A DNA stretch of 60,413 nucleotides, filler included, from Stramenopiles sp. TOSAG23-6 (GCA_900128565.1; 13 parts of 13 records of this genome joined end to end with filler, not necessarily neighbours in it), one strand, 5' to 3'. Shown: positions 7,762-55,186, counted from the whole stretch's first letter. Numbers and translations are program-made. The notes: generated by a model not told the origin, from the sequence alone.

Positions 7762-8913
7762 ATGTTCAAGAACACATTTCAATCAGGTTTTTTATCAATT
7801 CTCTACTCTATTGGTAGCAAACCACTTCAGATATGGGACAGAAAAGTCAGAAATGGACATATCAAGAGACTTACGGGTAAGTATTTTCTACAAATGTTCG
7901 GAACTGACCATTAGTGTTTATTTTTTTTTGTCCTTTACACTTTTTAGGATTTATAGTTTGATTCCAATGTTTTTTCTTGAGTAAACTGTATCGTAATGAA
8001 AAGCAAAATATGCCATCTTCAATACTTGCCATGTATGTGTGTGCTTGCACGATATATATTGCTGGTGTTGTTCTTTCACGCTAACTTTCCCCATTGGCTC
8101 TTCAAATCTTTCTTTGTATACGAAAACGGAAGACGCCACACAATCTNNNNNNNNNCATACAACATATTGACATATATACACATAACACAGACCCTGATAT
8201 TCAATCAAGTGTATTGGAAATTCTTGGAACTAATGTCAGTACAACGTTTATAAGTTGCCCAGCTGACTCAAAAAAGACCCTAGGTATCAAGTTGCCTTTT
8301 CTTGTAATGATTATCAAAAACATGAAAAAATACTTTACATTCGAAGTACAAGTTTTGGACGATAAAAATGTGCGTCGCAGATTTCGTGCTTCAAACTACC
8401 AATCGACCACTCGTGTTAAACCTTTCATTTGCACCATGCCAATGAGACTTGACGAAGGATGGAATCAAATTCAGTGTATGTTTTATTACAATTTAAAATT
8501 TTAATTTTTTTTTCGTACGAAATTTTGTACCTAACGAATTTTTAAAAATGTTTTAAAATATTTTCCTACAATACATTTAATCTCTCTGATTTTACACGCC
8601 GAGCGTACGGTACTAACTACATTGAAACTCTTCGTGTTCAAATACATGTACGTAACCACAACCCTAATTATCGCTCAAAGAGTCCATCTTGATTTTTTTT
8701 TTTTGTACCAAATTTCGTACCTAACGATTTTACATTTTTTTTTTCTTCACAACACAGGCGAATTGTCGTATCCGTCGAATTTACTTTTCCGATCGACTTT
8801 ATTCAGAGGATGAATTACCACCTGAATTTAAGTTGTTTCTGCCTATTGCCAAAGGTGCTGAGGCACAGCCAGCTGCAGCTACCCAGCAGGTTGCTGTTGA
8901 GAATCCTGCATAA
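7762..8913 (+). CDS. CFAP20: Cilia- and flagella-associated protein 20 (BUG22), 4 exons
   Basis: [26 protein letters not shown]...[18 protein letters not shown]...[18 protein letters not shown]...VQIHANCRIRR. Confidence 0.97.
7877..8190 (+). other. Canonical GT-AG intron without the family core
   Basis: G|GTAAGT...AACACAG|AC restores KRLTDPDIQS. Confidence 0.9.
8476..8576 (+). other. Non-canonical intron GT...AT
   Basis: CAG T|GTATGT...CAATACAT|TT AAT restores conserved QIQFNL. Confidence 0.9.
8648..8757 (+). other. Family intron with canonical GT...AG, fixing the splice register
   Basis: CAT|GTACGT...CGTACCTAAC...CACAACACAG|GCG restores QIHANCR; a 2-nt shift would change the conserved His to Gln. 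Confidence 0.92.
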
Positions 8914-9527
8914 GAGTTCTAATTTTGTATAATAATTTCTTACTTGAGGTATTTTATGGTGTATTTATGGATTATCTTTTTTGTGTTTTAACAAGGATAG
9001 TTTTTTTAAATTTTATAAATTATACTATACTTTTTTTATTTGTTTTTTGTTAATAGTGTACATCTACTATATTTATTTTGTATTTGTATATTTTATTTTA
9101 CTTAGAAGTGAGACCCTTAGAGTACATCATTCTCTCTCTTTATTGTATTTTTAAGTGTTTGGAGATGTGCTGAATAAACTTCATCAACGTATTGACAATC
9201 TTTTATTCTTTTTCTTTCCTCTGTACTACTTTTTAAACGATAATTTNNNNNNNNNNNNNNNNNNNNNNNNNNNNNNNNNNNNNNNNNNNNTTAATTAATT
9301 AANNNNNNNNNNNNNNNNNNNNNNNNNNNNNNNNNNNNNNNNNNNNGTTTTCATTATGAATTTCAAATTTATTTTTTTTTCATACGAAATTTTGTACCTA
9401 AACAAAAAAGATTTTTTTTTAGTTTTTATTCAATACGTTTTCATCATGAATTTCAAGTTTACTTTTTTTTTTTTTATAAAAATTTTGTACCTAAACAATT
9501 TTTCTTGAAATATTTTTCTGTAGCACA

Positions 9528-10238
9528 GAATATTTGCAAAGCTTTCATCATGGGTAACGCCACTGAAAATATTCTTGATGATGCTGTCCGCCACTGCCAG
9601 TATGCGGTGAATGTAATTGTCCCTGTCAGTGAACGCCTATGTTGTGCTGGTGATAGTGATAGTGCGTTTCCATAATGAATTGTTTACCTACATCTTTTTT
9701 TCGTATGAAACTTTGTATCTAAGGATTTAAAAAAATATATATTTTTCACAATGTATGTGATGGTGAAAATATTAATTTAGAAAATTCTAATTGTGATAAA
9801 ATTGTTCATAGTTCTAGGCAAAATATTGTTGATAAAAGTATATCTAACCAAAATCATCAAGAAAGACATTTACATATGAGAAAGACCTTGTGTGATCTAT
9901 ACCAAACATCAAATAGTCATCATGTTTGTTTTTTTTTTTTTTTCAAATTCGATTTTTTTTTTTATAAAAATTTTGTACCTAACAAATTCTAGTTTTTTTT
10001 TTTGAAATATTTTTCCAAAATACATTCTATGAAAAAGTATAAAACATTGGATTCACTGAATAATGACCCTACCATGAATACACGTAATATTGTACACAAT
10101 ATATCACGAAATACATCAACCAGTAGTGAACTATCACAAATTTCACAGCAACAACCGTCAAAATTTGTGACTCCTGGGCCAGGTTCACAAGAAACTCCAG
10201 CATCTGGATTGTTTCTTTATACTCCAAGTGTACTATAA
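9528..10238 (+). CDS. Hypothetical protein C-terminus, possibly with a USP-like motif; GT...AT introns at 9662-9756 and 9924-10025
   Basis: Continuous frame after removing both introns; FIMGNATENIL...VNVIVP weakly resembles a USP-domain end. Confidence 0.55.
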
Positions 10239-10381
10239 CGATAACCCTAACCCTAGCAAAAATGTCATTTTGAGATTTAGATTGATTTTTTTTCTGATTG
10301 AATAAAATCGACCTCGGTCAAAAAAAAAAAATTGTGTATTACCTTTTTTTTATACGTTCAATTGAATATAAATTGATCAAA

Positions 10382-11323
10382 ATGCCTTCAAATGCTGTAG
10401 TTTTTCTCCAGGATCAAGGGATTCCCCGAAGCGATGTTGAAAAGAAACTTAGCGTTCATGGATTGAAAGCTCTCTGGCAAGCAACAAAAGATGATATGCC
10501 TGTATCAGAGTCTGATGCCAGAGAAGTCATTGCAGTAGTCACTGTCAACAAGCCAGTCACAGAAGCCGTTCTGAGAAAGTATCCAAATGCTAAAGTTCTT
10601 GCTGTTGCATTCACCGGATATGGTGTACATGATTTAAACGCGTGTAAATCTGCAGGAGTTGTAGTTTGTAATGTTCCTGACTACAGCTCTGACTCAGTCG
10701 CTGAGCTTGCAATTGGTTTAACCCTCGCCGTCTACAGAGAAATTCCATCTGGTAATGCTCTTGTTCGTAGTGGTAAGTGGGGGCTAAGTGCTGGTGGCAC
10801 TGAATTACGTGGAAAGACAGTAGGCATTGCAGGGACTGGAAATATTGGTTGCGCTGTTGCGCGTCTCTTTAAGGCGTTTGGGTGTAAAATTATTGGTTGG
10901 TCCCGCTCTAAAAACTCAAAATTTTTGGAGTTAGGCGGCACTTATGTGACCCGCGAAGACTTATTTGTACAATCTGATATCGTCAGTATTCATATACCAA
11001 ACAACACAGAAACAAAAAAGATGATAAATCGAAATGATTTTGAGCGGATGAAATCAACGGCTGTTTTTATAAACACAGCTCGAGGTCAAGTGATTGACGA
11101 AGAAGTTCTTGTGGAGTTCTTAGCAGCAGGAAAATTTCGTGCTGGTCTTGACGTGTATGATACGGAGTCTGCACCTGCGTGGGCTTCCAAGGTGAATGAA
11201 AATACTATTCTTATGCCTCATGTTGCATATAAGACAAAAGAAGCTTTAGCGAAGAGAATGGATATTACTGTTAATAATATTACTTGTGCTCTTAGTGGTA
11301 CACCAGTAAATTTGTGTACTTGA
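10382..11323 (+). CDS. D-isomer-specific 2-hydroxyacid dehydrogenase
   Basis: VCNVPDYS..SVAE, GKTVGIAGTGNIG, FINTARG, LDVY, MPHVAY. Confidence 0.93.
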   Translation: MPSNAVVFLQDQGIPRSDVEKKLSVHGLKALWQATKDDMPVSESDAREVIAVVTVNKPVTEAVLRKYPNAKVLAVAFTGYGVHDLNACKSAGVVVCNVPDYSSDSVAELAIGLTLAVYREIPSGNALVRSGKWGLSAGGTELRGKTVGIAGTGNIGCAVARLFKAFGCKIIGWSRSKNSKFLELGGTYVTREDLFVQSDIVSIHIPNNTETKKMINRNDFERMKSTAVFINTARGQVIDEEVLVEFLAAGKFRAGLDVYDTESAPAWASKVNENTILMPHVAYKTKEALAKRMDITVNNITCALSGTPVNLCT

Positions 11324-11523
11324 ATAAAAAAATACCTAATCCTTAAAAAAAAATGTTTTATCGCTCATATCAAGATATACGAAAATATGTGAATATATAT
11401 ATCAAGAGATAACGATGATATATTGTAGTTTATTTAGGTATTTTGTGCTTTAAATCAAATTGAAACTCAAAACTGACACGAGAAATAAATTCATTTCTAA
11501 ACCTAACCCTAACCCAAATATCA

Positions 11524-12628
11524 TCAATTTTTGTTTTTCTCTGCAGCAATCATTTCTCTAGCTACAATAAAACAACCAACAAGTCCACCCAACTGAATAT
11601 CTTCAGATGTTGCATGTGCCAAATGATTTTCAAGATCTGCTAGTTTTGAAGCAATATACATTTTCACTGGAGGAGGAAATACTAAATCATTAGATCGTTC
11701 AAAGACGCATTTGATGACATCTTGCATTGCAAGACCTTTCTCCCGGCGAATACACGAAATATTGCGATATGCTTTTGAAAAAGGCTCATTTAATAACTGA
11801 GTCATGATTGCATCTACATCTGCTGGGTGTGGTGTACCGGTACAGATGTATTGTGAAAAGTATTTTACATTCAATTTTTTTGTTAGGTACAAACTTTTGT
11901 ACGAAAAAAATATTTTACACTCAATTTTGGAAAACGTACATATACACATTTTCTTGATTTACTTCAGGATAAGCCATGTGACAGGACTGTAAAATATTGA
12001 GCATTTTTCGCATATCACCCTCACAAAGATTTAAAATAGACTCCATTCCATCATCAGTTATATTAACATTTTCAGCGTTAGCAATTTCTTTCAAACGTCC
12101 ACTCATTTGAAATTTCTCAAGAGGAGCAAATCGAAATCTTGTACAACGCGATTGAATAGCTGGAATAATCTTATTTGCATAGTTACAAATTAAACAGAAG
12201 CGTGTATTTTTTACGTACTTTTCAATCACACGTCGAAGAGCAAACTGTGCTGTACGGGTCAGAGCATCTGCCTCATCCAAAATTACCAACTTTACACCTG
12301 AACTAAAAAGTTTACGAGTACCAGCGAAATTCTTAATTTGATTTCGCACTACATTTATACCACGATCATCCGATGCGTTAAGCTCTAAAACCATTGAAGA
12401 AAGATTATTACCATATAGGCGCCGTGCACACGCAAGAATTGTGGACGTTTTACCGGTACCTGGAGGACCGTAAAAGAGCAAATGAGGTAAGGAGTTTGCA
12501 TCTACCAGGCGATTAATTGTCGAAATAATTTCAGTGTGGGCAATCAAATCATCAAGCGTATTAGGGCGATATTTTTCTATCCATGGAAGAGACTCAGTGG
12601 CTGTCATCTTCTTCATTGAAGGGGCCAT
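11524..12628 (-). CDS. RFC5: Replication factor C small subunit (human RFC5/yeast Rfc3 type), 2 exons
   Basis: LPWIEKYRP, YGPPGTGKTS, LELNASDDRG, DEAD, IQSRC. Confidence 0.93.
11846..11939 (-). other. Non-canonical intron GT...AT
   Basis: TAT AT|GTACGT...CACAATACAT|C TGT restores NVYICTGTPHP. Confidence 0.9.
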
Positions 12629-12843
12629 TTCTTTCTATTTTAGCTCTCTTGTGGAGAGAGGTTTTGGGGGTCGAAGTCGTCGAAATCAATCATCTCAAGA
12701 ATATTCGTGACATCAATTTGATTTTTTGACTCAAATCGAAATCCTAGTCAGCGGTCAGTAGATTTAGTCATATTGGGTGTTGTTTGTGACTTAGTGCAAC
12801 TACTACAGGATCAATCTAAGCAAGCCCTTAGAAATAAGTCACT

Positions 12844-13811
12844 ATGCATTCTTGGGAAACTGCAGAATTTCGTTCACTAAAAGCACATGTGACAGCTACC
12901 CAAAAGCTTCATTTGCGCGATCTTTTAAAAGATGATGCTCGTTGTAGCTCTATGCGTACAGAGTTTGATGGCATTACGCTTGACTATGCGAGACAACTCG
13001 TAACTTCAGAAACAATGAATAAACTGGTTAACCTTGCAAATGCTGTGAGTCTTCCTAGCAAGATAAAGTCGATGTTTGAAGGGGCCCATCTTAATACTAC
13101 TGAAGATAGGGCTGTATTACACACTGCACTTCGTGCTCCAGTTAATTCTACATGTATGCTCGATGGAGAAGACATAATTCCAAAAGTTCACGCTGTGCTT
13201 CAACAAATATGTACATTTTCCGAAAAGGTTCGTAATAGTGAATGGTTAGGTGCAACTGGAAAGGCTTTAACTGATGTGCTTTGTATTGGCATTGGTGGAA
13301 GTTATCTTGGTCCTGAGTTTGTTCATGTATGTTTTATTTTTTTTCAATTTCGAATTTATTTATTTTTCGTACGAAATTTTGTACCTAACAAATTTTACAT
13401 TTTTTTTTTCCACAATACATGAAGCATTGCGGACTGATTCTGTGGCTGCTCAAAAAGCAAAAGGTCGACGGCTTCGTTTCCTTGCAAATGTTGACCCCGT
13501 TGATGTTGAGCGCTCTCTTGAAGGCCTTGATCGTGAAAAAACTTTGGTTATAATCGTTTCTAAAACTTTCACGACTGCAGAAACGATGTATGTTTTATTT
13601 TTTTTCAAATTCGTTTTTTTTTTTATAAAAATTTTGTACCTAACAAATTGAAGTTTTTTTTTTTTCAAATATTTTTCCAAAATACATGCTTAACGCAAGA
13701 ACAGTTCGGCATTGGTTGTTAGATGGAGCGAATGAAAAACTATCAACAGACAATGTGATTAAACAACAGTTTATTGCTGTTAGTGCTGCGGTAGACTCTG
13801 CAAAAGAATTT
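12844..13811 (+). CDS. GPI: Glucose-6-phosphate isomerase, 5' part (contig ends in intron 3)
   Basis: [51 protein letters not shown]. Confidence 0.96.
13327..13420 (+). other. Non-canonical intron GT...AT
   Basis: CAT|GTATGT...TTTCGTACGAAATTTTGTACCTAAC...CACAATACAT|GAA; using the nearest downstream AG (+4) causes a frameshift. Confidence 0.92.
13588..13687 (+). other. Non-canonical intron GT...AT
   Basis: ACG AT|GTATGT...CAAAATACAT|G CTT restores TTAETMLNA. Confidence 0.92.
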
Positions 13812-14069
13812 GTATGTTTTATTTTTTTTTTAAACAAAAAAAATCGATTTTTTTTTCGTACGAAATTTTGTACCTAACGATTTTTTTTTTGAAATATTTT
13901 TCCAAANNNNNNNNNNNNNNNNNNNNNNNNNNNNNNNNNNNNNNNNNNNNTTAATTAATTAANNNNNNNNNNNNNNNNNNNNNNNNNNNNNNNNNNNNNN
14001 NNNNNNCGAAATTTTGTACCTAACATTTTTTTTTAGATTTTTTTTGAAATATTTTTTCACACTAAATGT

Positions 14070-15105: not shown

Positions 15106-16872
15106 ATGTGGCGTGGTGATCGTTTTATTCCAAATCGAAAGACAAACATTGAAACTACTTCGTTCCTCTCAATGTTGAAAGAGAATCACGAACCATATGA
15201 CACGTTCATATTCAAGAAACAAGTTGCGTCTATTTTGTTTAACAGTTGTAATACAAGTCGCCGTGTTTTTTCTTTTACACCAAGCATAGCTAATTCACCA
15301 CGAAATACACAAAATACTTTAGAAAATATTAGGTCCTTGTACTGTAGAGGTAAACAGACGACAAAGACTCCAAAAGGTTCGCGTAATATTTCACTCGTAA
15401 AAGTTCTCGATGCGCCAGACTTATTAGACGATTATTACCTGAATCTTCTTGATTGGTCAGTCGATAATATTCTAGCAGTTGCTTTACAATCATTTCTTTT
15501 TTTGTGTATGTTTTATCTGAATTTCTAATTTAATTTTTTTTTTTGGTTTTCGTACGAAATTTCGTACCTAACGATTTTTTTTAGATTTTTTTTGAAATAT
15601 TTCTTCACAATTCGTGGAATTCTCACACAAACGAAACGGAAGAACTTTTAGAATTAGACGGTAATGACTATATTTCATCTGTGAAATTTTCAAGTGCAGA
15701 TGGAAATATTCTTGCTATAGGCACAAGTAATTATCAAATACAATTATGGGATATCAAAAAAAAAATAAGAATTCGAATTCTCACGGGGCATCTTGGACGC
15801 ATGTAAATTTTATTTTTTTTTTAAACAAAAAAATCGAGTTTTTTTTTTTTTCCAAAAAAATATTTTTTTCATATGAAATTTTGTACCTAAAAAAAAAAAA
15901 AAAAAATATTTTCAAAAAATACATATGTGGTTTAGCATGGNNNNNNNNNNNNNNNNNNNNNNNNNNNNNNNNNNNNNNNNNNNNNNNNNNNNNNNNNNNN
16001 NNNNNNNNNNNNNNNNNNNNNNNNNNNNNNNNNNNNNNNNNNNNNNNNNNNNNNNNNNNNNNNNNNNNNNNTTTTTTTTTTTTTTTTTTCCAAAAAAATA
16101 TTTTTTTCATACGAAATTTTGTACCTAAAAAAAAAAAAAAAAATATTTTCAAAAAATACATATGTGGTTTAGCATGGTCCTATGATGGAATCTCACTAGC
16201 ATCTGGAGGAAATGATAATTTGTGTTGTATCTGGGATTCACGATATTCAATGAAATGTTCTACCAATCAAAATGAACATAAAGTGCGTTGTATTCTTCGC
16301 GCGCACAAAGCTGCTGTCAAGGCCATCGCATGGTGTCCACACCAAAGTCATCTACTCGCATCAGGTATTTTTTTTTCATAGTAAATTTCGTACCTAACGA
16401 TTTTTTTATTTTTTTTCAATTTTTTATCTATATTTTTTTTTTCATAGTAAATTTCGTACCTAACGATTTTTTTGTGATTTCCTATTTTTCACAATACTTG
16501 TGGAGGCTGTAATGATAAAACAATCAAATTTTGGAATACAAGTATTTTGTCTAATGAAGCAACATGTATCAAAAGTGTTTTTACAGGTAGTCAAGTGTGT
16601 GCTCTTCTTTGGAATCAACACAGAAAAGAAATTTTATCTTCACATGTAAATTCTATTTTTTTTTAATTTTTTTTTTAAATTTTTTTTTTCATACGAAATT
16701 TCGTACCTAACGATTTTTTTTTTTTTTTACAATTTAAATTCGTATTTTTTTACAATCCATGGATATTCTGAAAATCAAATCTGTTTATGGCGGTATCCAA
16801 ATATGAAGAAAATTATAGAGTTAACTGGACATACAAAACGTGTTTTACATTTATGTACTTCTCCTGATGGAG
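15106..16872 (+). CDS. CDC20: Cdc20/Fizzy family APC/C activator (gapped; 3' end lost)
   Basis: C-box [66 protein letters not shown]. Confidence 0.9.
15506..15615 (+). other. Non-canonical intron GT...GT
   Basis: TTG T|GTATGT...CACAATTCGT|GG AAT restores LFLWNS. Confidence 0.85.
15803..15924 (+). other. Family intron GT...AT, possibly collapsed from two introns
   Basis: CGC AT|GTAAAT...AAATACAT|A TGT; its 3' half recurs after the N gap. Confidence 0.6.
16365..16499 (+). other. Non-canonical intron GT...TT with duplicated core
   Basis: TCA G|GTATTT...CACAATACTT|GT GGA GGC restores conserved LASGGG. Confidence 0.85.
16646..16760 (+). other. Non-canonical intron GT...AT
   Basis: CAT|GTAAAT...TACAATCCAT|GGA restores SSHGYS. 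Confidence 0.88.
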
Positions 16873-18818: not shown

Positions 18819-20257
18819 ATTCATTTTTTTCGTATCAAAATCTATAGTTTTTCCATGTCCAAATTGTATAGTACCTCCTTTATATAAAAATGGATATTGA
18901 TCAATAGATCGAATACCAAATTTTTGTTTTTCTTGAGGAGTAGCTCCTTGAACTAAATAATAAAATATATGAAAACATCTATCACCTTGACATAAATGAG
19001 ATAATCTTGATTTTTCTAATAAATAATGTTGTACTGTAGCTCCCATGTTTTTTGTGAAAAAAAAAATTTTGAAAATTTGTTAGGTACAAAATTTCATACG
19101 AAAAAACCAAAAAAAAAAAAATTGTAAAAAAAAATTGAAATTGAAAAAAAAAAAAAATTTGAAAATTTGTTAGGTACAAAATTTTTATAAAAAACCAAAA
19201 AAAAAAAAAATTGTAAAAAAAAATTGAAATTGAAAAAAAAAAAAAGGTACTTCAGTTGACCCGTTGATGAATTGAAATAAATTTTCATAAATTTTCCAAA
19301 ACGACTTGAATTATCATTTAGATGTGATTTAGCATTCCCAAATGCTTCAAGAATTGTACTAACATTTTGTATTAATGCTGATATATCGAAATTCTTTGTT
19401 TCAAAATTTTTTGTTTCAAAATTTTTTGTTTCAATTTTTTTTGTATTTTTCGTGTTTGAGAAAAATGTTAAATATTTAATAAATAAACCACAAGTAACTG
19501 TCTTACCTGCTCCTGATTCACCGGATACTATACAACTTTGATTTTGTATATTTTGTATATTATTTTCAAATTGATTGTTATATGCACGTGCGGCAATCAC
19601 ACTAACACTTGGTCGGTGTTTTTTTTGTTTTTTTTGAATGTTTTGAATTTGCATTAATGAAGAATTGGTATGAAATTTCGTACCAAATGAATTTGGAATG
19701 TTCATATATGGATTGATGGATAATAAAACATCACCAACAAATGTATAAATATACTTTTGTTGAATATATCTACGACGAAGAATTTTTAGTAGAATAGCTT
19801 CACTAAAGGAAACAATAGTACAAATATCATCGTTTTTTTGAGTTTCCTCATTTTCTTCTTCATTTTTGTCCCCAATTGAAATTTGTCTTTGTTTGTGTGC
19901 TTCATCCCAAGGATACACATAATTACAATCCAATTCTACGATACTCCCATCACGTATCTGAATAGAATGTTTTTCAGTACCCCATTCTTTTATTTCACCC
20001 ACGTCATACAACTTTGTAACCATTGTTTGTGTCACATTATGAAGGTGACTTCCGGGGCATTGTCCACGTTTATTATAGTCACTTCTAAACTCATCCAGTG
20101 TTTGATTTAAAGATTGTAAATGTGAACGACGAAATGTAGCATCTGTTTCCATTTTGTGGAGAAATTGTGTACGTAATACATCATTTTGAACAACATCAAT
20201 ACAACGTTCAACGTTTCCCTTGAAGTTATCACCTACACGATAGTAACATTTAGCCAT
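18819..20257 (-). CDS. Myosin heavy chain, 5' part
   Basis: IYTFVGDVLLSINPY, VSGESGAGKT, LEAFGNAK, NDNSSRFGKF, YLLEKSR, FHIFY. Confidence 0.93.
19045..19250 (-). other. Non-canonical intron GT...AT made of a tandem-duplicated unit
   Basis: CTG AA|GTACCT...CACAAAAAACAT|G GGA restores GQLKGATVQHYLLEKSR; two GTACCTAAC cores. Confidence 0.8.
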
Positions 20258-28376: not shown

Positions 28377-30506
28377 ATGGCAAAACCAATTCAGTATGAT
28401 GATGAGAACTTTTACGTTGTTGTAATTGTGTCTTTATTTTTTATACTTACACCATTTTCTTTGTTGAAATTATATTGGCTTTGTACGTGCAAGCGTCGTA
28501 GAAAGAAAGATTCTTTCTTTGGAATACGTAATTTGTCTTCAATAGTTATTTTAGCTATGTTTTGGTATATGTGGTTTCAGTTAGTTAATCAGGTAATGCG
28601 CCGTGAGGATGACTTCTTCGACCCGTATGTTATTCTCGGTATAAGCCCTAGTGCTGAACAAGCCCAAATACGAAAGGCGTATAGAAAATTAGGTTTGGCA
28701 ATGCATCCCGACAAATGTAAAAAGTGTGACCCTGAAGCTTATATTCGAGTCGTAAAGGCGTATGAATGTCTAACAGATCCTACAGCAAAGAAAAATTTTC
28801 AGTTACATGGACATCCCGATGGTCCTCAGCACCTTGATGTATCTATCGCTTTACCATCTTTTTTATCTGACAAGGGAAATGCGGTCTATGTATTATTAGC
28901 ATACTTGACAGCTTTTATAGCTGGTTTTCCACTGCTATGTTACGTTTTCAATTTGTTGCTAGGTAGTACTACTAGGAGTCAAAAAGTCTCGATGGAAACA
29001 CATGATATGTTTTTTAAAGTGTTCAATGCCCCAGCGTATCGTGAACATGCCACAAGAGATGTATGTTTTCATATTTTATTTCAAATTTTGTTTTTGTACC
29101 AAATGTTGTACCTAACAAATTTCAAAAATTAAAAATTATATTTTCCAAAAATACATGACCACATCGTTCTCATTTCTTCAGCAAAAGAATTTGATGTATT
29201 TAGTAGTAAAGACAAAAACGACGGTATTGCTTCCTATCCAACTCACGATGAAATCAGAACTCTTGCAAAAGTTTTAAAATCATCTGGTGCACGAAATGTC
29301 AAAATTCCTTATTCAAATCCAAATAAGAAAGATACAAAAAATAATACAAAACGTATTGATGAAGACTTGAGAGCTTGGAAAAGTGCTGCAAGGGTATGTG
29401 TACTTCTTGCTCATTGTATGCAATCAAAACCTAAAGTTGCAGCAGGTATCACGGGAAAAGAATTTGGAACTGCATTTTCTTCTGGTTTGTCTTTTCTAAA
29501 AAGCAAAAAAGGTTCGAAATCATTGAGAAGATTATTAGACGCTTTTGTTGGTGCTGCTGGTGGTACTGGAGCTGGTAAAATATTTCGGAGTGACATGAGT
29601 GTTGTATCTACTGCTATTGATACATGTATGTTTTATTTTTATTTTTCAAATTCGATTTTTTTTCGTACGAAATTTTGTACCTAACGATTTTTCTTTCAAA
29701 TATTTTTCCAAAATACATGTAATTGCATTATTCAAGGGAAATGGTTAAACACTAAAACAGGTAAAAGTAGTGGTGTTGATTCAACAGATACAATAGATAC
29801 AACAGATAAAACAAAAAGTGTCACTATTATTGATGCTGCTGTATGCACACTTGATGAAGATGAAGTTCATTGTAATGACCTTGTCACCTGTACTTTTACT
29901 GTTGAAAGGCCACATATAAAAAAAGGTACAGTATTGCCATCAACTGTATATGATATTGACGATGATGAGGAGTTATACCCTGAAGGTTGGTGGGTACTAG
30001 TTGGTGCAGATGTTAAAGTAACCCAAGTTGGTACTACTCATTTGATGAATGGAAAAACGAAAAAATCAAAAGAAACAAAAAAATTAAAAGAAACAAAAGA
30101 AACAAAAGTTCAGGAAGAAATGTTGAAGCGAACGACATCTGGACATTCATTACACCCACAAGGTCGGAAACCTCCACCCCCACCCACCGAAAACAACCCT
30201 AACAACCCTAACACTAATAATCGACAAACAATTATACAAAAAAAAAATGGACTGTCTGAGAAAAGTAATACATTACAAATCGCTGTACCGAATATAAGAA
30301 TTCGATCTCTAAAGAAAATTATGGGCGGCAAAAATAAAGAACAATGTAAATTTACATTTTATGCCCCCTCTCGGCCAGGATATTGGAAAGTTCTAGTTGT
30401 TGTAAAGAGTGCAGACAATGGCAATATTGGCACGAGTAAGTGGTTATCTGTTAAAGTCGTCACTCCTCCTATTAGTGATGACGAATACAGTGAAACTGAA
30501 AAATAA
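28377..30506 (+). CDS. SEC63: Sec63-like translocon J-domain protein; GT...AT introns at 29061-29156 and 29626-29718
   Basis: IQYDDENF start, TM segments, FDPYVILG...HPDK...GHPDGP, IALP; frame continuous after removing both introns. Confidence 0.8.
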
Positions 30507-32183: not shown

Positions 32184-33465
32184 ATGTCCGTTTTTAGGTA
32201 TGGAAATTTGTACTAAAATGTCGTGTTTTTAGGTATAGAAATTTTTACTAAAAACGTCGCATTTCTAGGTTAAAAATGTCATGTTTTAGAATGTAGATTG
32301 TAGATTTGACCAAAGGAGTTATAAGAAAGAAAACACTTTTTGTTTTCAATATTTTTAGAATGAATGTCTCAAATTCTTTTTCATAAAAGTTTTTTTCAAT
32401 ATTTTTAGAATGAATGTCTCAAATTCTTTTTCATAGAGTTTGTGTGTTGAATCACAAAAAAACATTTTGTAGGCATGTATTTTGGAAAAATATTTCAAAA
32501 AAAAATTCGTTAGGTACAAAATTTCGTNNNNNNNNNNNNNNNNNNNNNNNNNNNNNNNNNNNNNNNNNNNNTTAATTAATTAANNNNNNNNNNNNNNNNN
32601 NNNNNNNNNNNNNNNNNNNNNNNNNNNTTGTACCTAACAAATTTTTTAAGATTTTTTTTGAAATATTTTTCCAAAATACATGGTGCTAAACATTTCAATA
32701 CACCTAAACACAAAAAGTCACCATTTCAAAAAATCTTTCAAATCTTTCAAATCTCTAATGTTTTCCATTTAATCTGCTTTGGATTTGGAATTGTGTTGAT
32801 ATTAGGGTTAGGGTTTTATCTACGATGTAGAAAATATCGAATTCAATTCAAGCGTAAACAGTCTCTGTAGTCTTCAGTATTGTTGTACGCATTGTGATAT
32901 TCGTGATATTCCGTACCATTTTTTACATACGATGCTTCATTTAAAAAAATAATTTTATTTTTCTTCAAAATACAATTACTTTTGAAGTGTATATATCTTC
33001 TTTTTTTTTTAAATTTATTATGATTCACTTTGAATTGTGTCATCAGTTTTCCAAATATTTCTTTTCCATTTGCTTTATGGTCTTGAAGAAACCTGCAGGC
33101 GCCATCCAATGTGTGATGTGTGTAGCTAAGGCCGATTTCATCAGTGCAGCATAAGTCATATGACTTATGACGTTTTTTTTATGATTTTATAGACTTATGT
33201 TTCTGTGCAGTTCATCAGCAATTGTCATAACCTAGGTGGACTCGAACCCTCGACCTTATGAATTATTAAAATTCAACTTTTGACCACTCATTTTTGATAT
33301 TTTATTTTAAACATCATTTTTGTTCTGTGGTGTGTACGCTTTGACCAAGTAGTAGTAGTCGTCGTCGTTGTCTTCCTTTTCAATAATACCAAGTTGATTC
33401 CCTCTTATACAACTGCATCATATTATTGTTTGAATAGAGAAACACAGAATTATCATAGAGTCCTG

Positions 33466-37117: not shown

Positions 37118-38114
37118 GTATGTTTTATTTTTTTTCAATTTCGAATTTATTTTTCGTACGAAATTTTGTACCTAACNNNNNNNNNNNNNNNNNNNNNNNN
37201 NNNNNNNNNNNNNNNNNNNNTTAATTAATTAANNNNNNNNNNNNNNNNNNNNNNNNNNNNNNNNNNNNNNNNNNNNTTGTACCTAACAAATTTTTTAAGA
37301 TTTTTTTTGAAATATTTTTCCAAAATACATGGTGCTAAACATTTCAATACACCTAAACACAAAAAGTCACCATTTCAAAAAATCTTTCAAATCTTTCAAA
37401 TCTCTAATGTTTTCCATTTAATCTGCTTTGGATTTGGAATTGTGTTGATATTAGGGTTAGGGTTTTATCTACGATGTAGAAAATATCGAATTCAATTCAA
37501 GCGTAAACAGTCTCTGTAGTCTTCAGTATTGTTGTACGCATTGTGATATTCGTGATATTCCGTACCATTTTTTACATACGATGCTTCATTTAAAAAAATA
37601 ATTTTATTTTTCTTCAAAATACAATTACTTTTGAAGTGTATATATCTTCTTTTTTTTTTAAATTTATTATGATTCACTTTGAATTGTGTCATCAGTTTTC
37701 CAAATATTTCTTTTCCATTTGCTTTATGGTCTTGAAGAAACCTGCAGGCGCCATCCAATGTGTGATGTGTGTAGCTAAGGCCGATTTCATCAGTGCAGCA
37801 TAAGTCATATGACTTATGACGTTTTTTTTATGATTTTATAGACTTATGTTTCTGTGCAGTTCATCAGCAATTGTCATAACCTAGGTGGACTCGAACCCTC
37901 GACCTTATGAATTATTAAAATTCAACTTTTGACCACTCATTTTTGATATTTTATTTTAAACATCATTTTTGTTCTGTGGTGTGTACGCTTTGACCAAGTA
38001 GTAGTAGTCGTCGTCGTTGTCTTCCTTTTCAATAATACCAAGTTGATTCCCTCTTATACAACTGCATCATATTATTGTTTGAATAGAGAAACACAGAATT
38101 ATCATAGAGTCCTG

Positions 38115-46430: not shown

Positions 46431-46631
46431 AGAACTTTTTTTTTTTTTTTTTTTTTGACTTTTTTTTTTTTTTNNNNNNNNNNNNNNNNNNNNNNNNNNN
46501 NNNNNNNNNNNNNNNNNTTAATTAATTAANNNNNNNNNNNNNNNNNNNNNNNNNNNNNNNNNNNNNNNNNNNNTTTCATACGAAATTTCGTACCTAACGA
46601 TTTTTTTTTGAAATATTTTTTCACAATACGT

Positions 46632-49140
46632 TTATGGACTTTATTGTCCTGGGGACCCACATGGATATACAAATGCTGTCACAGGATATCCACAATTATG
46701 TAAAGGGGGTTACTATTGCCCATCTCCAGCGAAGCAAATCATTTGTCCAAAAGGATATGCTTGTCGTCCTGGATCATCTGAACCTTCTCTATGTGTTTTT
46801 TTTCATGAGTGTCCCAAGGGATCTTCTCGACCAAATGGTAGTTTTATTGGTGTAGTTTCTGTCGTTATTTTGTTTTTATTTGTCCATTCTTTTAAATATA
46901 TATATCTTTGCATTCGAAATGGAAATAGAATTGCTAGAGAAACTACACCAAGTTCGAAATATTGGCGACGTGCAATGTCTTATGTACCATCTTGGCGTAA
47001 AATCAAAAATATTAATGGTGAAGATAGACCTTTATTAAATGTATTGAATCATGATATGCAAAACGCCTTTGATGATGAAAATTCAGAAAATGTACCAATA
47101 ATACCATTAATGACTGCTGAACCTTTGTTACGTTCTGAAAATAGTGAAAAAGTTTCGATTATTTTTCATCGTATTACAGTAAAGTTGGAGCCTAATTGTA
47201 CATCTTTAGTAAAACATGACAAAAGAATAGAAAAAATAATTATCAAAGATGTAACTGGAACTCTTAGAAGTTCACGACTCACTGCAATTATGGGTCAATC
47301 GGGATGTGGTAAAACGACTTTATTGAATGCCCTTTGTAACCGAATAATTCGTCCAGCGAAATTGTATGGAGATGTCTATGTAAATGGTACTCTAATGCCT
47401 AGTGGGATATCAAAAGATATAACAGGTTATGTTCCACAAGATGATACAATGCATACTGAACTAACAATACGTCAGTGTCTTTGGTTTTACTTAGAATTGA
47501 AAGGAAATCCGCAAAAAACATTTCGTGAAAAAAAAATGCATTTGAATAATATACTTACAGTGTTAGGTCTATATAATATTCGACATTCTATTATTGGAGA
47601 TACAGAGACACGTGGTATTAGTGGTGGGCAAAGGAAGAGAGTAAATGTAGGTATTGAACTTCTAGCTGACCCAACAGTTCTCATGCTGGATGAACCTACA
47701 TCGGGGTTGGATAGTACTACATCTGCAGATCTCATCTCAACTCTTTCAAATTTGGCAAAGACAGGGCTTACTATAGGGATGGTCATTCATCAACCACGAC
47801 CAGAAATTTTAGACATGACTGATGTGCGTTTTCAAAATTGAATGTATAATTTTGTTTTTTGTAATTTGTATCTAACAAAACAAATGAATGTAAAGTATTT
47901 TTCTAATATGCATGATTTGATATTACTCCAACGTGGACGATTGGTGTATTGTGGTCTTTGTGACAATGCCAATGCTTACTTTGAATCTTTAGGTTATGTT
48001 TTACCTTCTAGAACAAGTCCTGCAGATTTTTATCTTGATTTACTAGTAAGTACAGCAACATATGAAAATGAGGAAAGATGTCTCTATAATCAATGGAATC
48101 AGAAAACATTTAGAGAACAGTTGAATTTGGATACAAAAGAGGATACTATAAATCATTCAGATGATGTTGTATCACTCATTTCTTCAATGTTTTCCTCTAC
48201 AGATTCACCTCCGAAATCAAGAAAAAAACCTTCATTTACAGCACAATTTATTACCATAATTAAGAGGGGTCTTGTTCAACATGGTTGGCCCACGAGTTCT
48301 TTCCTTGGAGATGCATGTACATTTTTTTTTCATTTTTGAATGTATTAATATTTTTTTTATAGAGAATTTCGCATTCAAAACAAATGAAATTTGAAATATT
48401 TTTTCACAAATTATTATTGCTTGTATTTTCTGGTGCATTACTTGGTGCTGTATTTTCCTCAGGTAGTACCAATGAGCTTACAATGCGGTTTCTTTTATCT
48501 TCACTTGCAATTGGTTTAACAGGCACTCAATCTGCTATTACAATTTTCGGTGGAAAAGAAAAAGTTATTTTTTTACGCGAATCTGCATCTGGTATTAAAG
48601 TAACAGCGTATTTCTGGGGCAAGTTAGTATCGTATCTTGTTCGTATCCTTACGGCACCTGCTTTTTTTCTGTTGCTTTATTATCCTCTGTCAGCTCCAAG
48701 ATTCTCTTTTTTTGTATATTATCAAATATTGTTATGGACAAATTTAACAGCGATGTCAATAGGAGTTTTAATATCCCTCTTATTTTCACGAAATTCGGCG
48801 TTTTTTTGCGGGAGTCATTGTTTCCTTAATATCTATATTATTTTCTGGTATGCAACCACCCGTCAAGGAATTGGAAACCACCATTTTTGGTCAGATTGGA
48901 ATGTCACTTTCATACGCTCGTTGGACAACAGAAGCTCAATTTTTTATGGAGCTCAGTGCATATCCTCCATCAGCATATAAATTAAATGTTGTGAGTGGCA
49001 TTATAAATTTCTTAGGCTATGGTCAAAACCATACACTTAATTTAGAAACTGTTTATGAACTGTGTATTGTTCAATTACTATATATTACTGTGGCTTGTTT
49101 GTTAATATCATATATAATTTTACTACGAAATGCAAGATAA
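46632..49140 (+). CDS. ABCG half transporter with Cys-rich extracellular N-region; GT...AT introns at 47824-47913 and 48317-48414; homopolymer frameshift at about 48805
   Basis: GQSGCGKTT, ISGGQRKRV, LDEPTSGLDS, IHQPR; spliced DMTDDLILL; FLRESASG. Confidence 0.9.
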
Positions 49141-49250
49141 AAAATAAAGTATAAAATAGTCCAGCATATATAAAATAAAATCTTTTTTCATAATATTTGA
49201 CCTGATTTTATATTTTCACCATAAAATAAAAACTTTTTCATACTAATATT

Positions 49251-50162: not shown

Positions 50163-51059
50163 TTAGGTTACAACAGCCATCACTACTGTAATATCATCCA
50201 TTTTGCCACCTTCAAATTCATAACCGCATTGTCTTGCATTTCTACTAAAAGGACTTGGTTTGGAGGTTGACTTTGCATTAACTAGTGCTAACTTTGCAAT
50301 AATTTCAGCTAGTTTATCTATGAGTAATCCATGTATAAGTCCGTTTTTAATGGTCTCTTTCTCTGATTTATTTACTGGAATACCACAGGATCCTCCAACT
50401 GAAGTAACATCATCTAACAAAGATGTTATTTCGTTGTTCCAGACATTATCAAATAGCCCATCAGTGGCGGCTAAAATAAGGTCACCTGGCTTTACTAACA
50501 ATTTATATGAGTCCGCGTCTTCCACCGTATCACTAGATCCAGTGCCTAATTGATTAGGAAAATTAAACCCTTTAAGTTGATTTGACTCACATGATTTCAT
50601 TACGATACCCCAAGGTTTGCTTTGATACGTATCTTCTTTATAATCTTTTTCCTCAGAGCTATTTTTTCTTGTCATGCAATCTCTTACAAAATCCATAAAA
50701 ACCTGTTTTTTTTTTAACTTTTTTGAACCATCTATATATCCACGCCGTAGAACCATAAATCCAGAATCCCCCAGAACAACTGCGTCTAGAGCTTTCTTTT
50801 CGGCATCATGTATTGTGAAAATATTTGTAATTTGAAATTCGTAAGGTACAAAAGGAATTTTTAGGTACAAATTTTTTATGAAAAAAAATTAATGATGAAA
50901 ACGTACATACGTTAAAATACAAGCTGTAGAAGAACCTTTGGCTTGTACCTTTTTCGCAGCTTTGGAAAGAATTTGATTTGGAGAGAATAATGTTTCCGAC
51001 ATAGCGAATGATTTTGCATGATCTAAGAGTTCTCTTGAATAAGCACCTGAATCTACCCC
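50163..51059 (-). CDS. PTC7: PTC7-type PP2C phosphatase, 3' part; GT...AT intron at 50808-50906
   Basis: GVDSGAYSRELL, GSSTAC, LGDSGF, ATDGLFDN, GGKMDDITV. Confidence 0.88.
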
Positions 51060-51275
51060 ATGTAATTTGGAAAAATATTTCAAAAAAAATCTAAAAAAAT
51101 TGTTAGGTACAAAATTTCGTNNNNNNNNNNNNNNNNNNNNNNNNNNNNNNNNNNNNNNNNNNNNTTAATTAATTAANNNNNNNNNNNNNNNNNNNNNNNN
51201 NNNNNNNNNNNNNNNNNNNNCGTACGAAATTTTGTACCTAACGATTTTTTTTGAAATATTTTTCCAAAATGCATG

Positions 51276-51823
51276 ATGCAGGTGATCCGATGACTGTTTG
51301 GGAAATAATACATGAACATTACGCACAGCCTGTTTTATACCACATGAAAACGATTCGTAGGTATGGACCTGTTCTATTTCTTTCTCAAAAAATGGTGACA
51401 GATCAAAATTATACAACGACGAAGGATCGAGATGACATGAAAAAACTAAAAGAAGATAGAATAAGTCAATTAAAACTGGAATACTCTCAAAGAAAAAGGG
51501 AAGTGTTTCCCAACAAATTGCCCAGTATTTTAGTAAAAGAAAAAAAAAATATTCGATTTTGGGATAGAAAAACAAATGCAAAAGTTGTACCCGTTGTAGA
51601 GATGAAAAAAGAACATTTACAAGTTGTTCACGAGAATACAGATATTATAATAGGTGATAGCTTAGTCCCTGTTGGGAAAGATGATTCAAAAAATATCCCC
51701 ATCATTCCACCACAAAAAATAGAACTTAGAATAGACTCGAATGATGGTATGGCATATAATATGACACAGTTTAAAGAATGTTATGGTGGTTTAGTTGAGT
51801 GGAATAATTCTCAACCAGTTTAA
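51276..51823 (+). CDS. Hypothetical protein last exon
   Basis: Open frame after family acceptor CCAAAATGCAT. Confidence 0.55.
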
Positions 51824-52471: not shown

Positions 52472-52802
52472 TGTATAAATATAACGTGGGCAATGTTACT
52501 TTAATCTTTGTCTGTATAGTTACAACATTGATTGATATCCAAGAGGATTTTTATAGGCTTTTAAATTTTATCTCATGTAAAAAACAAGACTATTCAAAAT
52601 TTCAAATAATATTGACACGACACACACACACACACACACAGGAGCGCTTTTGTATTTAAATACGTACTATTTAGGGTTAGGGTTCAGAATGAAACTGTCT
52701 CCCCAAGCAAAGCCATGCTATCGATCGTCGTCGTCGGATCGAAAAAAGTGGAACACAGACGTTCAAAATAATTTCCTTGACAAAGTACATCTTGAATTAA
52801 CC

Positions 52803-53537
52803 ATGTCGTTTTATGATGTTTTGGGTGTATCTAAAACAGCCACTACGCGTGACATCAAAAAGGCATTTCGCAAATTAGCTCTCAAGGAGCACCCTGACAA
52901 AGGCGGAGATCCTGAACGTTTTAAGCAAATTGCTCAGGCATATGAGACACTTGTTGATGACGCAAAAAGAAGGGATTATGATCAAGTTGGGAGTACAAGC
53001 AATATGGGTGGTGGCTTCCAATCGAGGGGTTTCCATACTCCATTTTCATTCCAAAGAGCAGAAGATGTCTTTGCCGCTTTTTTCGGTAATGATGATTTTA
53101 TGAGAGGTAGTAGTTTTTCGGGTTTTGGTGGTGATGACTTCTTTGGAGGCACAAATAGAAGCACAAATAGAAGCACTAATAGAAACACCAATGATAATAG
53201 AAGTATGATGTTTCCCGGTTTTGGTGGTGGTTTTTTTGGTAGAAGTGCTTTTGATATGTCTCCTTTTGGTGGTGATCCTTTCGGTGGTGATTCGTTTGGG
53301 CGTGGTTTTCATAGTAGTGGGATGAGTAGTTTTGCATCGTCCAGTAGTAGTTCTAATAGAGGTGGTTATTCAAAATCTGTTTCTACCCGCTCCCATATTG
53401 GCCCAGACGGACGTCGTATCACAACAACTACCACTACTGTTCGACATCCCGATGGTAGGGAGGAAACAGATACAACTACAACTACAAATGGACCATCTTT
53501 GGAAAATACTAGTGGTAGACGTGGCTTGCTGCAGTGA
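52803..53537 (+). CDS. DnaJ protein, DNAJB6/B2-like
   Basis: J domain with HPDK, G/F-rich region, S/T-rich SKSVST...TTTT C-terminus. Confidence 0.9.
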
Positions 53538-53811
53538 TTTTATTCTTTTTGGAGGTTTATTTTTCAATTGGTATAAAGTATATTTAAATTTTTTTATTAA
53601 TTGTATGATTGAATCGACACAGAAACTTGGATTTTGATCTCTTGAAACAGTGAGGCATTGTGAGATTCCGTACCATTTTTTTGTATCTAATTTTCAATTC
53701 TAAATATCGAAATCGAAATTTTTGACTTTTTTGAGAATTTTTTTGCGACCTTCCCATAAAAGTCCAAAAAAAACAACATTACTTTGTAGAAGTACGACAT
53801 CACAATCAGCG

Positions 53812-55186
53812 ATGCCGAAATCATCATCATCGAAAGCACAAAAGGGAGCTAGATCAAGCTCGAGAAAACCTCGGAAAGGATCAAGAAAAACCCAGAAAGG
53901 TGATAAAAAGAAAGTACGAAAGAGAACAAGATCAAGAACAAGATCAAGGACAAGATCAAGAACAAGATCAAGAAAAAAACCACGAAAAAAACAGAAAGAT
54001 GAAAAAGAGGTGTACCCTGGTGTCACTATTCACAACCTGCCTCTCTTTATAGTATCTGTATTTTGTATGGTTTGTATTAAATTCCTGATTATGTCTCGTT
54101 GGTACAGCCCTCAGGATACAGAACTCCTTCTGAATGTTTGTTTATTTCCCATGGTACTTGCTGTTTATTCTTTGTCACCAATCGAGCAACCAGAGGCATA
54201 CCACAATTTTGCTGACCAAAGAGTATTATGTGGCTGCCTTCCAAATTACATGGATGTATTGTCGAATATTCCCTTTGCAATTTTTGGTATACTGGGAGTA
54301 GTTGCTATAGCAGATGACACACGGCTTACTATTGATTCTGAAATGGAGCGCAAGGCTTGGATTTCTTTCTTCGTTGGGATTACAGGCATTTCCATAGGCT
54401 CAGCATACTACCACTGGTATCGTACTTCACCTACTCTTGTATGGGATAGATTGCCAATGACTGTCGCATTTCTTTCAGCCCTCAATATTCAGTACATGTA
54501 CGTTTTTATCAACTCCAACTTGATTATTTTTCATACAAAATTCCGTACCTAACATATATTTTTTCTAAAAATATTTTTTCACGATATATGGAACGAATTT
54601 CGATTACATACGGCCAATATCTATATGCATTTATTTTTTTTGGATTATTCAGTGTATTCTCATGGCAATTTACGAAGGATCTGCGACTGTATGTCATTGC
54701 GCAGTTTTACCCTACTATAATCATTCCTATAATGATGTACGTTTTCATCATCAATTTCAAATTTATTATTTTTCGTACCAAATTTCGTACCTAATAATTT
54801 TGAAAAAAATTTAAATATTTTTCACAATATATGTATTCACTTGAACCAAAATATTCGAGACCGGATCTACTCCTACTTGCCTTCTCCTTTAATATAGCTT
54901 GCAAAATATCTGAATCATTAGATAAACAAATTTTTACGTTGACCAATGGAATCATAAGTGGACATACATTGAAGCATATGTACATTTTCAAAGTTGAATT
55001 TCGAATTTATTTTTTTTGTACCACATTTTGTACCTAACAATTTTTTTTTTTTTTACGAAAAAAAAAAAAAATATTTTTTCACAATATATTTTAGCTTCGT
55101 TGACTCCTCTAACAGCACTGTATTATCTTCAGGAAAGAGAACTACAAATAGCCGATAGCATGGGTCATGAAAGATTAGTAATGTAG
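53812..55186 (+). CDS. Alkaline-ceramidase-like (CREST) membrane protein; GT...AT introns at 54498-54589, 54737-54832, 54980-55089
   Basis: YHNFADQR, VLSNIPF, GSAYYH, WDRLPMT, SGHTLKH; all three junctions are AT|GTAC...ATATAT and restore the frame. Confidence 0.85.

Follow-up and report, generated by a model that had tools for sequence, protein, structure and literature searches.

The DNA analysed here (the window, 60,413 bases, from Stramenopiles sp. TOSAG23-6) is composed of 13 unlinked contigs of 4,546-4,578 bases each, arranged in descending size and joined by N44-TTAATTAATTAA-N44 linkers (4579-4678, 9247-9346, then every ~4,650 bases), so that genes on either side of a linker are not linked. 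Its coding content is eukaryotic and compact, and comprises genes for Cys-tRNA synthetase, a Kv-beta-like aldo-keto reductase, CFAP20, a 2-hydroxyacid dehydrogenase, the RFC small subunit, glucose-6-phosphate isomerase (GPI), Cdc20, myosin, UGGT, an ABC transporter, VDAC and Ku, among others. These genes contain a family of introns of ~100 nucleotides (nt), most of which end in AT instead of AG, and this family is the subject of the present study. The GC content ranges from 27 to 44% in 2-kb windows, and neither Rfam matches nor tRNA genes were found in the window. Contigs 32628-37176 and 37277-41825 are identical (0 differences), and intron copies on them were therefore counted once. The closest named proteins are from stramenopiles and the genome is AT-rich and marine; DNA of the window recurs in 2024 seawater metagenomes and makes up small shares of marine metatranscriptomes. 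For RFC, the public model P0122 is identical over the exons, followed by marine sequences (72-81%) and oomycetes (67-73%). The host is presumably a heterotrophic marine flagellate of stramenopile-like type.

The curated set consists of 29 introns with both ends visible, namely 24 clear and 2 degenerate family members and 3 non-family introns, all in the sense orientation of their own gene (Table 1). The 26 family members have the form GTAYGTTTT ... TTTCGTACGAAATTTYGTACCTAAC ... CACAATACAT, are 90-206 nt long (median ~100 nt) and contain 11-33% GC. Full-length alignment of the 24 clear copies yielded GTAYGTTTT(ATTTTTTTTCAAATTCG or CATCATGAATTTCAAATT)...TTTTTTTCGTACGAAATTTYGTACCTAAC(G/A)A...GAAATATTTTTC(C/A)(A/C)AATACAT. 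A first-pass annotation of the sequence had read these introns as introners, and had named similarity limited to splice signals as an outcome that would speak against this reading. The similarity spans the whole length of the copies, including TTTTATTTTTTTTCAAATTCG, the TTTCGTACGAAATTT arm and GAAATATTTTTCC. Over the 276 pairs of clear copies the median identity is 0.61, compared to 0.51 for shuffled sequences (shuffled maximum 0.605), and the best pairs from unrelated genes reach 0.81-0.91 over their entire length (9924 vs 13588; 1010 vs 13588 and 29626). The closeness of introns 13327 and 37118, noted before, was confirmed, as they differ by one 4-nt indel over 59 visible bases.

Repeat families D3, D5, D6, D14, D15, D19 and D20 were found in the window. 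A search with the core motif returned 56 matches, ~40 of them within a recognisable element and the others being chance matches to a weaker variant inside coding sequence. The family extends from base 1 of the window to ~55315, beyond the previously assigned range of 8476-55089. Half of the contig ends (13/26) fall within a copy, as expected if the assembler stopped at a high-copy repeat. In the seawater metagenome run X3, 8,553 contigs match contig 9347-13906 (4.56 kb) at >=92% identity, almost all of them on the elements. The summed depth in this run is 14,000-57,000 on elements compared to ~7.9 on unique sequence; since depth is not copy number, we limit the claim to thousands of matching contigs. 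Positions 10393-13350 are also covered by an independent seawater contig (2,966 nt), which differs at 12 letters and continues into the intron. A pattern scan of metagenomes returned four loci, one of which is a true copy, located in the unrelated public metagenome contig L003 and having the same borders, AT|GTATG...ACAT|G. Altogether, these data support a multi-copy introner-like intron family, in agreement with the earlier reading.

A ~200-nt intron of the Cys-tRNA synthetase gene at 345-545 (-) contains, besides a degenerate copy in sense orientation, a 5' block in duplicate (GTATTCACTTA..) and a core fragment in antisense orientation. CCCTAA telomere-like repeats lie at 3402-3415 and 8655-8668, near the 5' ends of introns 3392-3534 and 8648-8757, and a further one (10244-10258) directly follows an open reading frame (ORF) ending near 10235.

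When precisely GTAYG..(CACAATAC)NN was excised, the flanking reading frames became open again in each family copy tested. Eleven junctions in the GPI, RFC, aldo-keto reductase, Cdc20 and CFAP20 genes were fixed to the codon by homologue alignment, and the introns removed at these junctions end in AT, AC, TT, GT or AG. For the aldo-keto reductase seven relatives were available, six of which share 72-77% identity with the query exon and come from contigs whose length suggests mRNA or from a EukProt model. Four of the five junctions in this gene are gapless, while intron 2508-2605 is one residue off compared to the relatives. The ambiguity reported for the CFAP20 intron at 8476 is indeed synonymous: GT..AT gives CAG|T+TT and GT..AC gives CA+ATTT, both encoding Q-F. 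In a polyA metatranscriptome, two contigs stop matching the genome at 11845 and 13323, in each case the leftmost position of the predicted joint, and 37-38 letters of each contig are left unmatched beyond it. In the protein search, no full-length spliced GPI protein of this organism was found above 62% identity. The public model P0122 is mis-spliced at the RFC intron (window 11527-12634 (-)): it reads through part of the intron and gives VKYFFRTKVS where the relatives and the splice proposed here give CTGTPHPA, replacing 8 conserved residues by 10 unrelated ones, and elsewhere omits 21 conserved residues (RCTRFRFAPLEKFQMSGRLKE). To judge from its sequence, this model was annotated without knowledge of the splice rule.

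Across the curated set, the last two intron bases are AT in 21 cases, AG in 3, AC in 2 and TA, GT or TT in one each, and the first two are GT in 27, GC in 1 and AT in 1. An A occupies position -2 of the intron end in 26 of the 29, and T is preferred at -1. Family copies, including the degenerate ones, end in AT in 21/26 and in AG in 2/26 cases and have a GT or GC donor in 25/26, and thus differ from the canonical GY-AG borders on which published introner screens are based. Two of the three non-family introns also lack AG: 2902-2998 is a validated GT-AC intron, and 2508-2605 has no in-frame GT-AG solution. The non-AG acceptor is therefore real and general in this genome, and broader than previously thought. 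It had been proposed that the copy of a duplicated AT replaces AG as acceptor; the acceptor is non-AG as stated, but non-AG ends also occur without a matching exonic copy and in non-family introns, so that a duplicated AT is not the whole reason for splicing.

The donors (GTATGT, GTACGT, GTGCGT and similar) are yeast-like, and a branch-site-like TACCTAAC is located 32-53 nt from the 3' end; the three non-family introns lack the TACCTAAC block. In all family copies the 3' cut lies exactly two bases after CA(C/A)AAT(A)C, whatever these two bases are. An unused AG is present 9-19 nt downstream of the branch motif in four introns, at 15506 after eight T's. Each copy carries a full set of spliceosomal signals, consisting of a GTAYGT donor, TACCTAAC, a T/A-rich spacer and the fixed CACAATAC plus two bases. 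Cuts would be made at |GT and directly after the two bases beyond CACAATAC, which are mostly AT and otherwise AC, TT, GT or AG. We suppose that this is carried out by an ordinary U2-type spliceosome whose acceptor choice in the second step no longer needs AG, the 3' site probably being set by the conserved block or by the distance from the branch site rather than by the AG dinucleotide. As two of the three non-family introns also lack AG, this points to a relaxed or shifted 3' splice-site rule of the host spliceosome.

Borders placed two bases off would turn the family into AT-AC introns (ATGTAT...ATAC), either U12-type or U2-type. Such introns likewise have non-AG ends and tolerate flexible 3' dinucleotides, and A and C form a compatible pair of first and last intron bases. 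The 17 introns with AT on both sides give the same mRNA under a GT..AT, TG..CA or AT..AC reading, and copy 1220-1125, which starts with ATACG and has no GT reading, can be read as AT..AC. Against this, at the validated junctions with unequal dinucleotides (introns 2902, 3392, 3639 and 16365) only the GT register keeps the conserved TSEWS, GEDGGGN, CTQAQL and SGGG, which the shifted register alters. The shifted first two bases would also vary (AT, GT, AA, TG, TA, AG), with GTAYGT fixed just inside at the GT register throughout the alignment, and loss of the preceding AC leaves the terminal AT in place (ATATAT in three copies, ATGTAT, ATCCAT and ATGCAT). Conserved residues, the fixed GTAYGT and the persistent terminal AT led us to read the family as GT..AT. 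U12-type introns have the donor RTATCCTT and the branch site TCCTTAAC 10-20 nt from the 3' end, which neither the donor nor the branch-site distance of the family resembles. Rfam detected no U12-type small nuclear RNA in the window, which says nothing on the whole genome. Taken together, we consider AT-AC introns a very improbable explanation, and removal without the ordinary spliceosome, guided by structure as in euglenids and some diplonemids or by ciliate-like DNA excision of AT-bounded elements, an even less probable one. The latter is suggested by the consensus ends AT|GTA...TACAT|, which are complementary over 5 positions in 19-22 of the 24 copies, and by the resemblance of a 2-nt direct repeat plus short inverted repeat to the sequences eliminated in ciliates. 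It is contradicted by the conserved U1/U6-type donor and the branch site, by the retention of introns 13327 and 13588 in independent 2024 metagenome DNA contigs, and by the lack of an unusually stable structure in all ten copies folded (z -2.02 to +0.70, 9/10 above -1.1). An end-to-end helix was rejected, because the ends pair no better within than between copies (p=0.55-0.60), as was an RNA hairpin at GTACGAAATTTYGTAC, which appears in 2/10 minimum-energy folds with non-significant stability and is broken by variants such as GTACCAAATTTCGTACC. The variable borders, missing U1-type donor and stable end-joining structure of nonconventional euglenid and diplonemid introns are not found in the family; the introns of hemistasiid diplonemids have GC-rich, variable ends, according to the available portion of PMC12621601.

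With respect to the origin of the family, the first-pass annotation had proposed that an element with GTAY...ATAC ends duplicates a 2-bp AT target. Exonic AT precedes 18 of the 29 introns (19 of 30 in the earlier count), G starts the downstream exon in 20 of the 29, as reported, and C is found at exon position -3 in 13/27; C at -3, AT and G at +1 form a palindromic C-AT-G site. The self-complementary ends described before are present in their full form, AT|GTAT...ATACAT|, in 5/29 introns (1010-916, 13327-13420, 13588-13687, 29061-29156 and 29626-29718) and as the shorter AT|GT...AT| in 15/29, two more AT/AT introns starting with GC (863-753) and AT (1220-1125). Direct repeats across the borders typically comprise 2-4 nt (left repeat 2-3 plus right repeat 0-1). 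The predicted covariation of exon and intron ends was tested on the 29 introns of the window. In 18 of these, exon and intron finish with the same dinucleotide (permutation mean 13.25, p=0.0013), and in 17/24 when only the family is considered (mean 14.3, p=0.022; Fisher 0.059). Covariation thus exists overall, but it rests almost wholly on AT with AT. Non-family introns are preceded by GG, AA and GG, which implies that an exonic AT is no general need for splicing.

These borders suggest DNA-level insertion at C-AT-G-like sites with 2-bp AT duplication, the exonic and the intronic AT being the two copies. Judged from the sequence, AT target duplication is plausible but unproven. It is our preferred route of spread, at somewhat less than even odds, with insertion without duplication as the main alternative; these two routes cannot be told apart from sequence, since AT reads identically on both strands and either route adds the same net length. 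The window has a single transposase, that of a complete PIF/Harbinger element (~33126-36240) with 28-nt inverted repeats (33129-33156 / 36210-36237, 89% complementary) and TAA flanking both sides. Besides the transposase ORF at 34568-36091 (-) (Plant_tran, DDE_Tnp_4), the element has another ORF, without family match, at 33298-34374 (+). As an autonomous partner this element was rejected, since its ends and its TAA duplication are unlike those of the introns. A short introner-like fragment lies between its two ORFs (~34380-34500 (-)).

Spread without duplication, by reverse splicing into AT|G-like sites or by an element whose terminal ..ACAT is its own and which prefers AT|G, would leave the family and the relaxed acceptor as described. 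We regard it as unlikely, though clearly less so than the other alternatives. The sense orientation of all curated introns together with their complete splice signals, the negligible inverted termini, and 4 of 20 AT-ending family introns that follow a non-AT exon (TG, GT, TA, AA), as if the AT were owned by the element, all fit this route, and some published introner families lack duplications and inverted repeats, as stated in the accessible text of PMC9860276. It would, on the other hand, need a separate site preference for the exonic AT in 17/24 family copies and leaves the GT/GT copy at 15506 unexplained, and the antisense fragment in the Cys-tRNA synthetase intron and the short copy in the Harbinger element suggest movement at the DNA level. 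A non-mobile origin, with ordinary old introns made alike by very strict donor, branch-site and acceptor signals, is already disfavoured and has a very low probability. Strict signals of this kind occur in intron-poor genomes such as that of budding yeast, whose introns have the donor GTATGT and the branch site TACTAAC. The GTATGT donors and the TAC(C)TAAC branch-site motif found here are similar, and both GTAYGT and TACCTAAC are strongly conserved, but the similarity covers non-signal parts, reaching 91% over ~100 nt between unrelated genes, and the acceptor is not YAG. The repeat behaviour of the family, with assembly breaks inside copies and thousands of metagenome contigs matching at >=92%, and the non-family introns without the TACCTAAC block also contradict strict signals. 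Least likely are chimeric insertions produced by amplification or assembly. The assembly is fragmented, with one duplicated contig, N runs and a doubtful gap in the Cdc20 region, but the independent 2,966-nt seawater contig confirms 10393-13350 and the intron, a copy with the same borders exists in the unrelated contig L003, and copies are in frame in every gene tested.

As a whole, the reading of the family as a high-copy introner-like element of ~90-140 nt, present in most intron-bearing genes and spliced with a relaxed non-AG acceptor, has a probability of about 0.55 in our estimation. Several observations weigh against it. Fewer AG dinucleotides occur between branch site and 3' end than expected from shuffles (4 vs 13.4), and AG could still be read as acceptor when present; as the copies are related by descent, this scarcity is not independent evidence and is not claimed as selection. 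RNA support consists of the two contig ends, at the level of contigs rather than reads. Metatranscriptome runs X7 and X8 contain 1,230 and 1,339 element-bearing contigs, with a depth ratio of elements to exons about as high as in DNA, which indicates unspliced RNA or DNA carry-over, stable excised introns also being possible. While AT/AT pairing is non-random as the duplication model predicts, only one of the 12 informative introns, those with a non-AT side, has an identical pair (GT/GT in the Cdc20 intron at 15506-15615, as previously reported); the mismatched exon/intron pairs are TG/AT, GT/AT, TA/AT, AA/AT, AA/AC (twice), AG/TT, AT/AG, GC/AG, GG/AG and GG/TA. The proposed inverted ends were found as GTAT/ATAC, but comprise only 4-5 nt, are absent in the GTACG...ATAT subfamily and show no within-copy excess. 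The window yielded no autonomous element whose ends match, and the metagenome contigs matching contig 9347-13906 showed no empty site, which is not evidence of absence. The uniform sense orientation fits RNA-level spread as well as selection, and the non-family sample comprises three introns.

Introners of Micromonas, Aureococcus, dinoflagellates, fungi and haptophytes resemble the present family in that near-identical introns occur in unrelated genes at high copy in an aquatic protist host and are removed in frame, leaving the mRNA unchanged. According to the available sections of PMC9860276, published introners have GY-AG, rarely AC, borders, and some draw one splice site from a 3-9-bp duplication; the Chrysochromulina element carries the donor and takes the acceptor from a 4-bp target duplication, the same logic as in the first-pass proposal. 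In contrast, 21/26 family copies end in AT here, the putative duplication is 2 bp and the inverted termini are 4-5 nt long. The largest (2025) screen, as described in the accessible part of PMC12130899, has AG and AC as sole 3' sites, and families with unfamiliar sites were dropped unless supported by transcripts. In Amoebophrya, also a marine protist, more than 60% of introns are non-canonical, with repeated introns that have short direct repeats over the borders and complementary ends. No dinucleotide pair dominates in this protist, its inverted repeats (8-20 nt) form hairpins, its direct repeats measure 3-5 nt, and its U1 went undetected (PMC7789003, available text). Here, in contrast, GT is the donor in 27/29 introns, the branch-site motif is strong, the ends pair over <=5 nt without a predicted stable fold, and the Amoebophrya-type combination of 8-20-nt inverted and 3-5-nt direct repeats is not found. 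Fritillaria borealis shares A-N acceptors instead of AG over most of its genome, but is an animal, has also lost the GT donor that is kept here, and its introns do not form one dominant sequence family. Henriet et al. are said to have proposed in 2019 a small-transposon origin for these introns. The Fritillaria acceptor pattern is quoted as 'AG-A(N)' in the available text of PMC7789003, and PMC13326754, in its accessible portion, describes non-canonical introns together with divergent and duplicated U2AF subunits. By analogy, such U2AF subunits may be considered a candidate mechanism and, as far as that portion goes, a published precedent for reading non-AG ends. Our literature search found no description of a GT..AT-dominated intron set or of introners in MAST-type stramenopiles. 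Neither 'splice' nor 'canonical' occurs in the main text of PMC5778133; its supplements, outside that check, might bear on the point.

The intron-final AG is among the most conserved signals of eukaryotic gene expression. If the proposed reading is true, a free-living protist with ~90% of sampled introns (26/29) ending in non-AG, mostly AT, would represent a natural experiment. Since the textbook donor and branch site are kept, it would isolate 3' splice-site recognition and choice in the second catalytic step, for which the divergent U2AF of Fritillaria provides a natural comparison. Regarding intron gain, one element family appears to have given rise to the majority of a genome's introns. 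Because published introner screens take annotated GY-AG introns as their starting point, they would miss this family, and public gene models seem to have missed the unusual splice rule. As P0122 is wrong at such an intron, predicted proteomes of this lineage, and surveys relying on them, are likely corrupted where these introns occur. More tentatively, and in our view with a rather low probability, the acceptor rule may have shifted from AG to A-T (..ACAT|G) with a yeast-like donor and branch site, alongside invasion by one transposon-like intron family (~9/10 introns) whose 2-bp AT insertion scar became the consensus acceptor. If true, a transposon would have rewritten a core splicing signal.

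Table 1. Introns and partial intron copies in the window (a bar marks the border or junction; exon end, last two exon bases).
Position	Strand	Feature	Intron ends	Exon end	Evidence and remarks
753..863	-	Family intron, Cys-tRNA synthetase	GC..AT	AT	ORF restored, 60/157 codons; Pfam tRNA-synt_1e on upstream ORF
916..1010	-	Family intron	GT..AT	AT	Frame restored
1125..1220	-	Family intron, first base A	ATACG..ACAT		NLH|GGGVDLQFPHH in frame, HGGG..FPHH presumably being the class I synthetase signature; TACAT (5 nt) repeated at each border
2508..2605	+	Non-family intron, aldo-keto reductase	GT..TA (equivalently TA..AG), 3' border uncertain		One-residue gap vs relatives
2902..2998	+	Non-family intron, aldo-keto reductase	GT..AC		YWGTSE|WSPAAI, gapless vs seven relatives
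3143..3252	+	Degenerate family intron, aldo-keto reductase	GT..AG		Junction alignment, gapless vs relatives
3392..3534	+	Family intron, aldo-keto reductase, CCCTAA repeats near 5' end	GT..AT	TG	Junction alignment, GEDG|GGNGLNG = GEDGGGNGLNG of relatives
3639..3757	+	Family intron, aldo-keto reductase	GT..AC	AA	Junction alignment, CTQ|AQLALAWC gapless
7877..8190	+	Non-family intron, CFAP20	GT..AG		RLT|DPDIQ; next exon aligns from chain residue 41
8476..8576	+	Family intron, CFAP20	GT..AT (or GT..AC, synonymous codon)	GT	Chain residues 133|F134|135 contiguous
8648..8757	+	Family intron, CFAP20	GT..AG, canonical (CACAACACAG)		Chain residues 157|158 contiguous
9347..9528	+	Tandem pair of copies, upstream of ORF starting 9549 (likely intron of the 5' untranslated region)	Second ends CACAG		First cut by contig start
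9662..9756	+	Family intron	GTGCG..ATGTAT	TA	ORF 104/78 codons
9924..10025	+	Family intron	GT..AT	AT	Frame restored; 91% identical to 13588-13687
11846..11939	-	Family intron, RFC small subunit	GT..AT	AT	Junction alignment, NVYI|CTGTPHPADVD vs NVYxCTGxPxP of relatives; polyA contig stops at 11845
13327..13420	+	Family intron, GPI	GT..AT	AT	7e77_A residue 165 then 166; RNA contig stops at 13323, leftmost place of 4-nt CATG repeat
13588..13687	+	Family intron, GPI, splits ATG codon	GT..AT		Frame restored
13812..13906	+	5' part of copy cut by contig end		TT	Core motif search
14007..14067	+	3' part of copy at contig start	Ends AAAT		Core motif search
15506..15615	+	Family intron, Cdc20	GT..GT	GT	5g04_R 208|W209|210 contiguous
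15803..15924	+	Family intron, Cdc20	GT..AT		93% identical second copy 16072-16161 beyond N run
16365..16499	+	Family intron, Cdc20, internal tandem duplication	GT..TT	AG	5g04_R 373|G374|375 contiguous
16646..16760	+	Family intron, Cdc20	GT..AT		Curated table
19045..19250	-	Family intron, myosin, ~90-nt internal tandem duplication	GT..AT	AA	GQLK|GATVQHYLLEKSR in frame; Pfam Myosin_head
29061..29156	+	Family intron	GT..AT	AT	Frame restored
29626..29718	+	Family intron	GT..AT		Frame restored; 9-nt repeat ATACATGTA at both borders
32475..32527	-	3' part of copy at contig end			Core motif search
32628..32681	+	3' part of copy at contig start (= 37277-37330)			Core motif search
37118..37176	+	5' part of copy at contig end (= 41767-41825)		AT	Core motif search
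46574..46631	+	3' part of copy at contig start	Ends ACGT		Core motif search
47824..47913	+	Family intron, ABC transporter	GTGCG..ATGCAT	AT	MTD|DLILLQRGRLVY in frame; Pfam ABC_tran
48317..48414	+	Degenerate family intron, 3' border by family anchor only	GT..AT		Frame restored
50808..50906	-	Family intron	GT..AT	AT	Frame restored
51060..51120	-	3' part of copy at contig end			Core motif search
51221..51281	+	3' part of copy at contig start	Ends GCAT		Core motif search
54498..54589	+	Family intron	GTACG..ATATAT	AT	Frame restored
54737..54832	+	Family intron	GTACG..ATATAT	AT	Frame restored
54980..55089	+	Family intron	GTACA..ATATAT	AT	Frame restored

In the Cdc20 gene, 41 residues (5g04_R 272-312, about one WD40 blade) are missing between exon 2 and exon 3 (window 15925-16161). 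The N run at 15941-16071 is flanked by the two 93% identical intron copies, with the same 16 bases after each, and the gap is explained either by an overlap from scaffolding or by a hidden exon, with another intron in the corresponding position of the next blade. Out-of-frame overlaps between long ORFs on the same strand occur at 43187-43211 in the Ku-domain gene and at 48772-48977 in the ABC transporter gene; no recognisable family copy is present at these overlaps, which may represent further introns or frameshifts. The region 5400-6700 is GC-rich (~44% in 2-kb windows vs ~32% elsewhere) and open in several frames on both strands, and three long ORFs in it have no Pfam match. Unusually for a eukaryote, a 521-amino-acid ORF at 20566-22128 (+) contains five or six tandem repeats of ~48-51 amino acids that match GcrA, HTH and Myb-like DNA-binding models.

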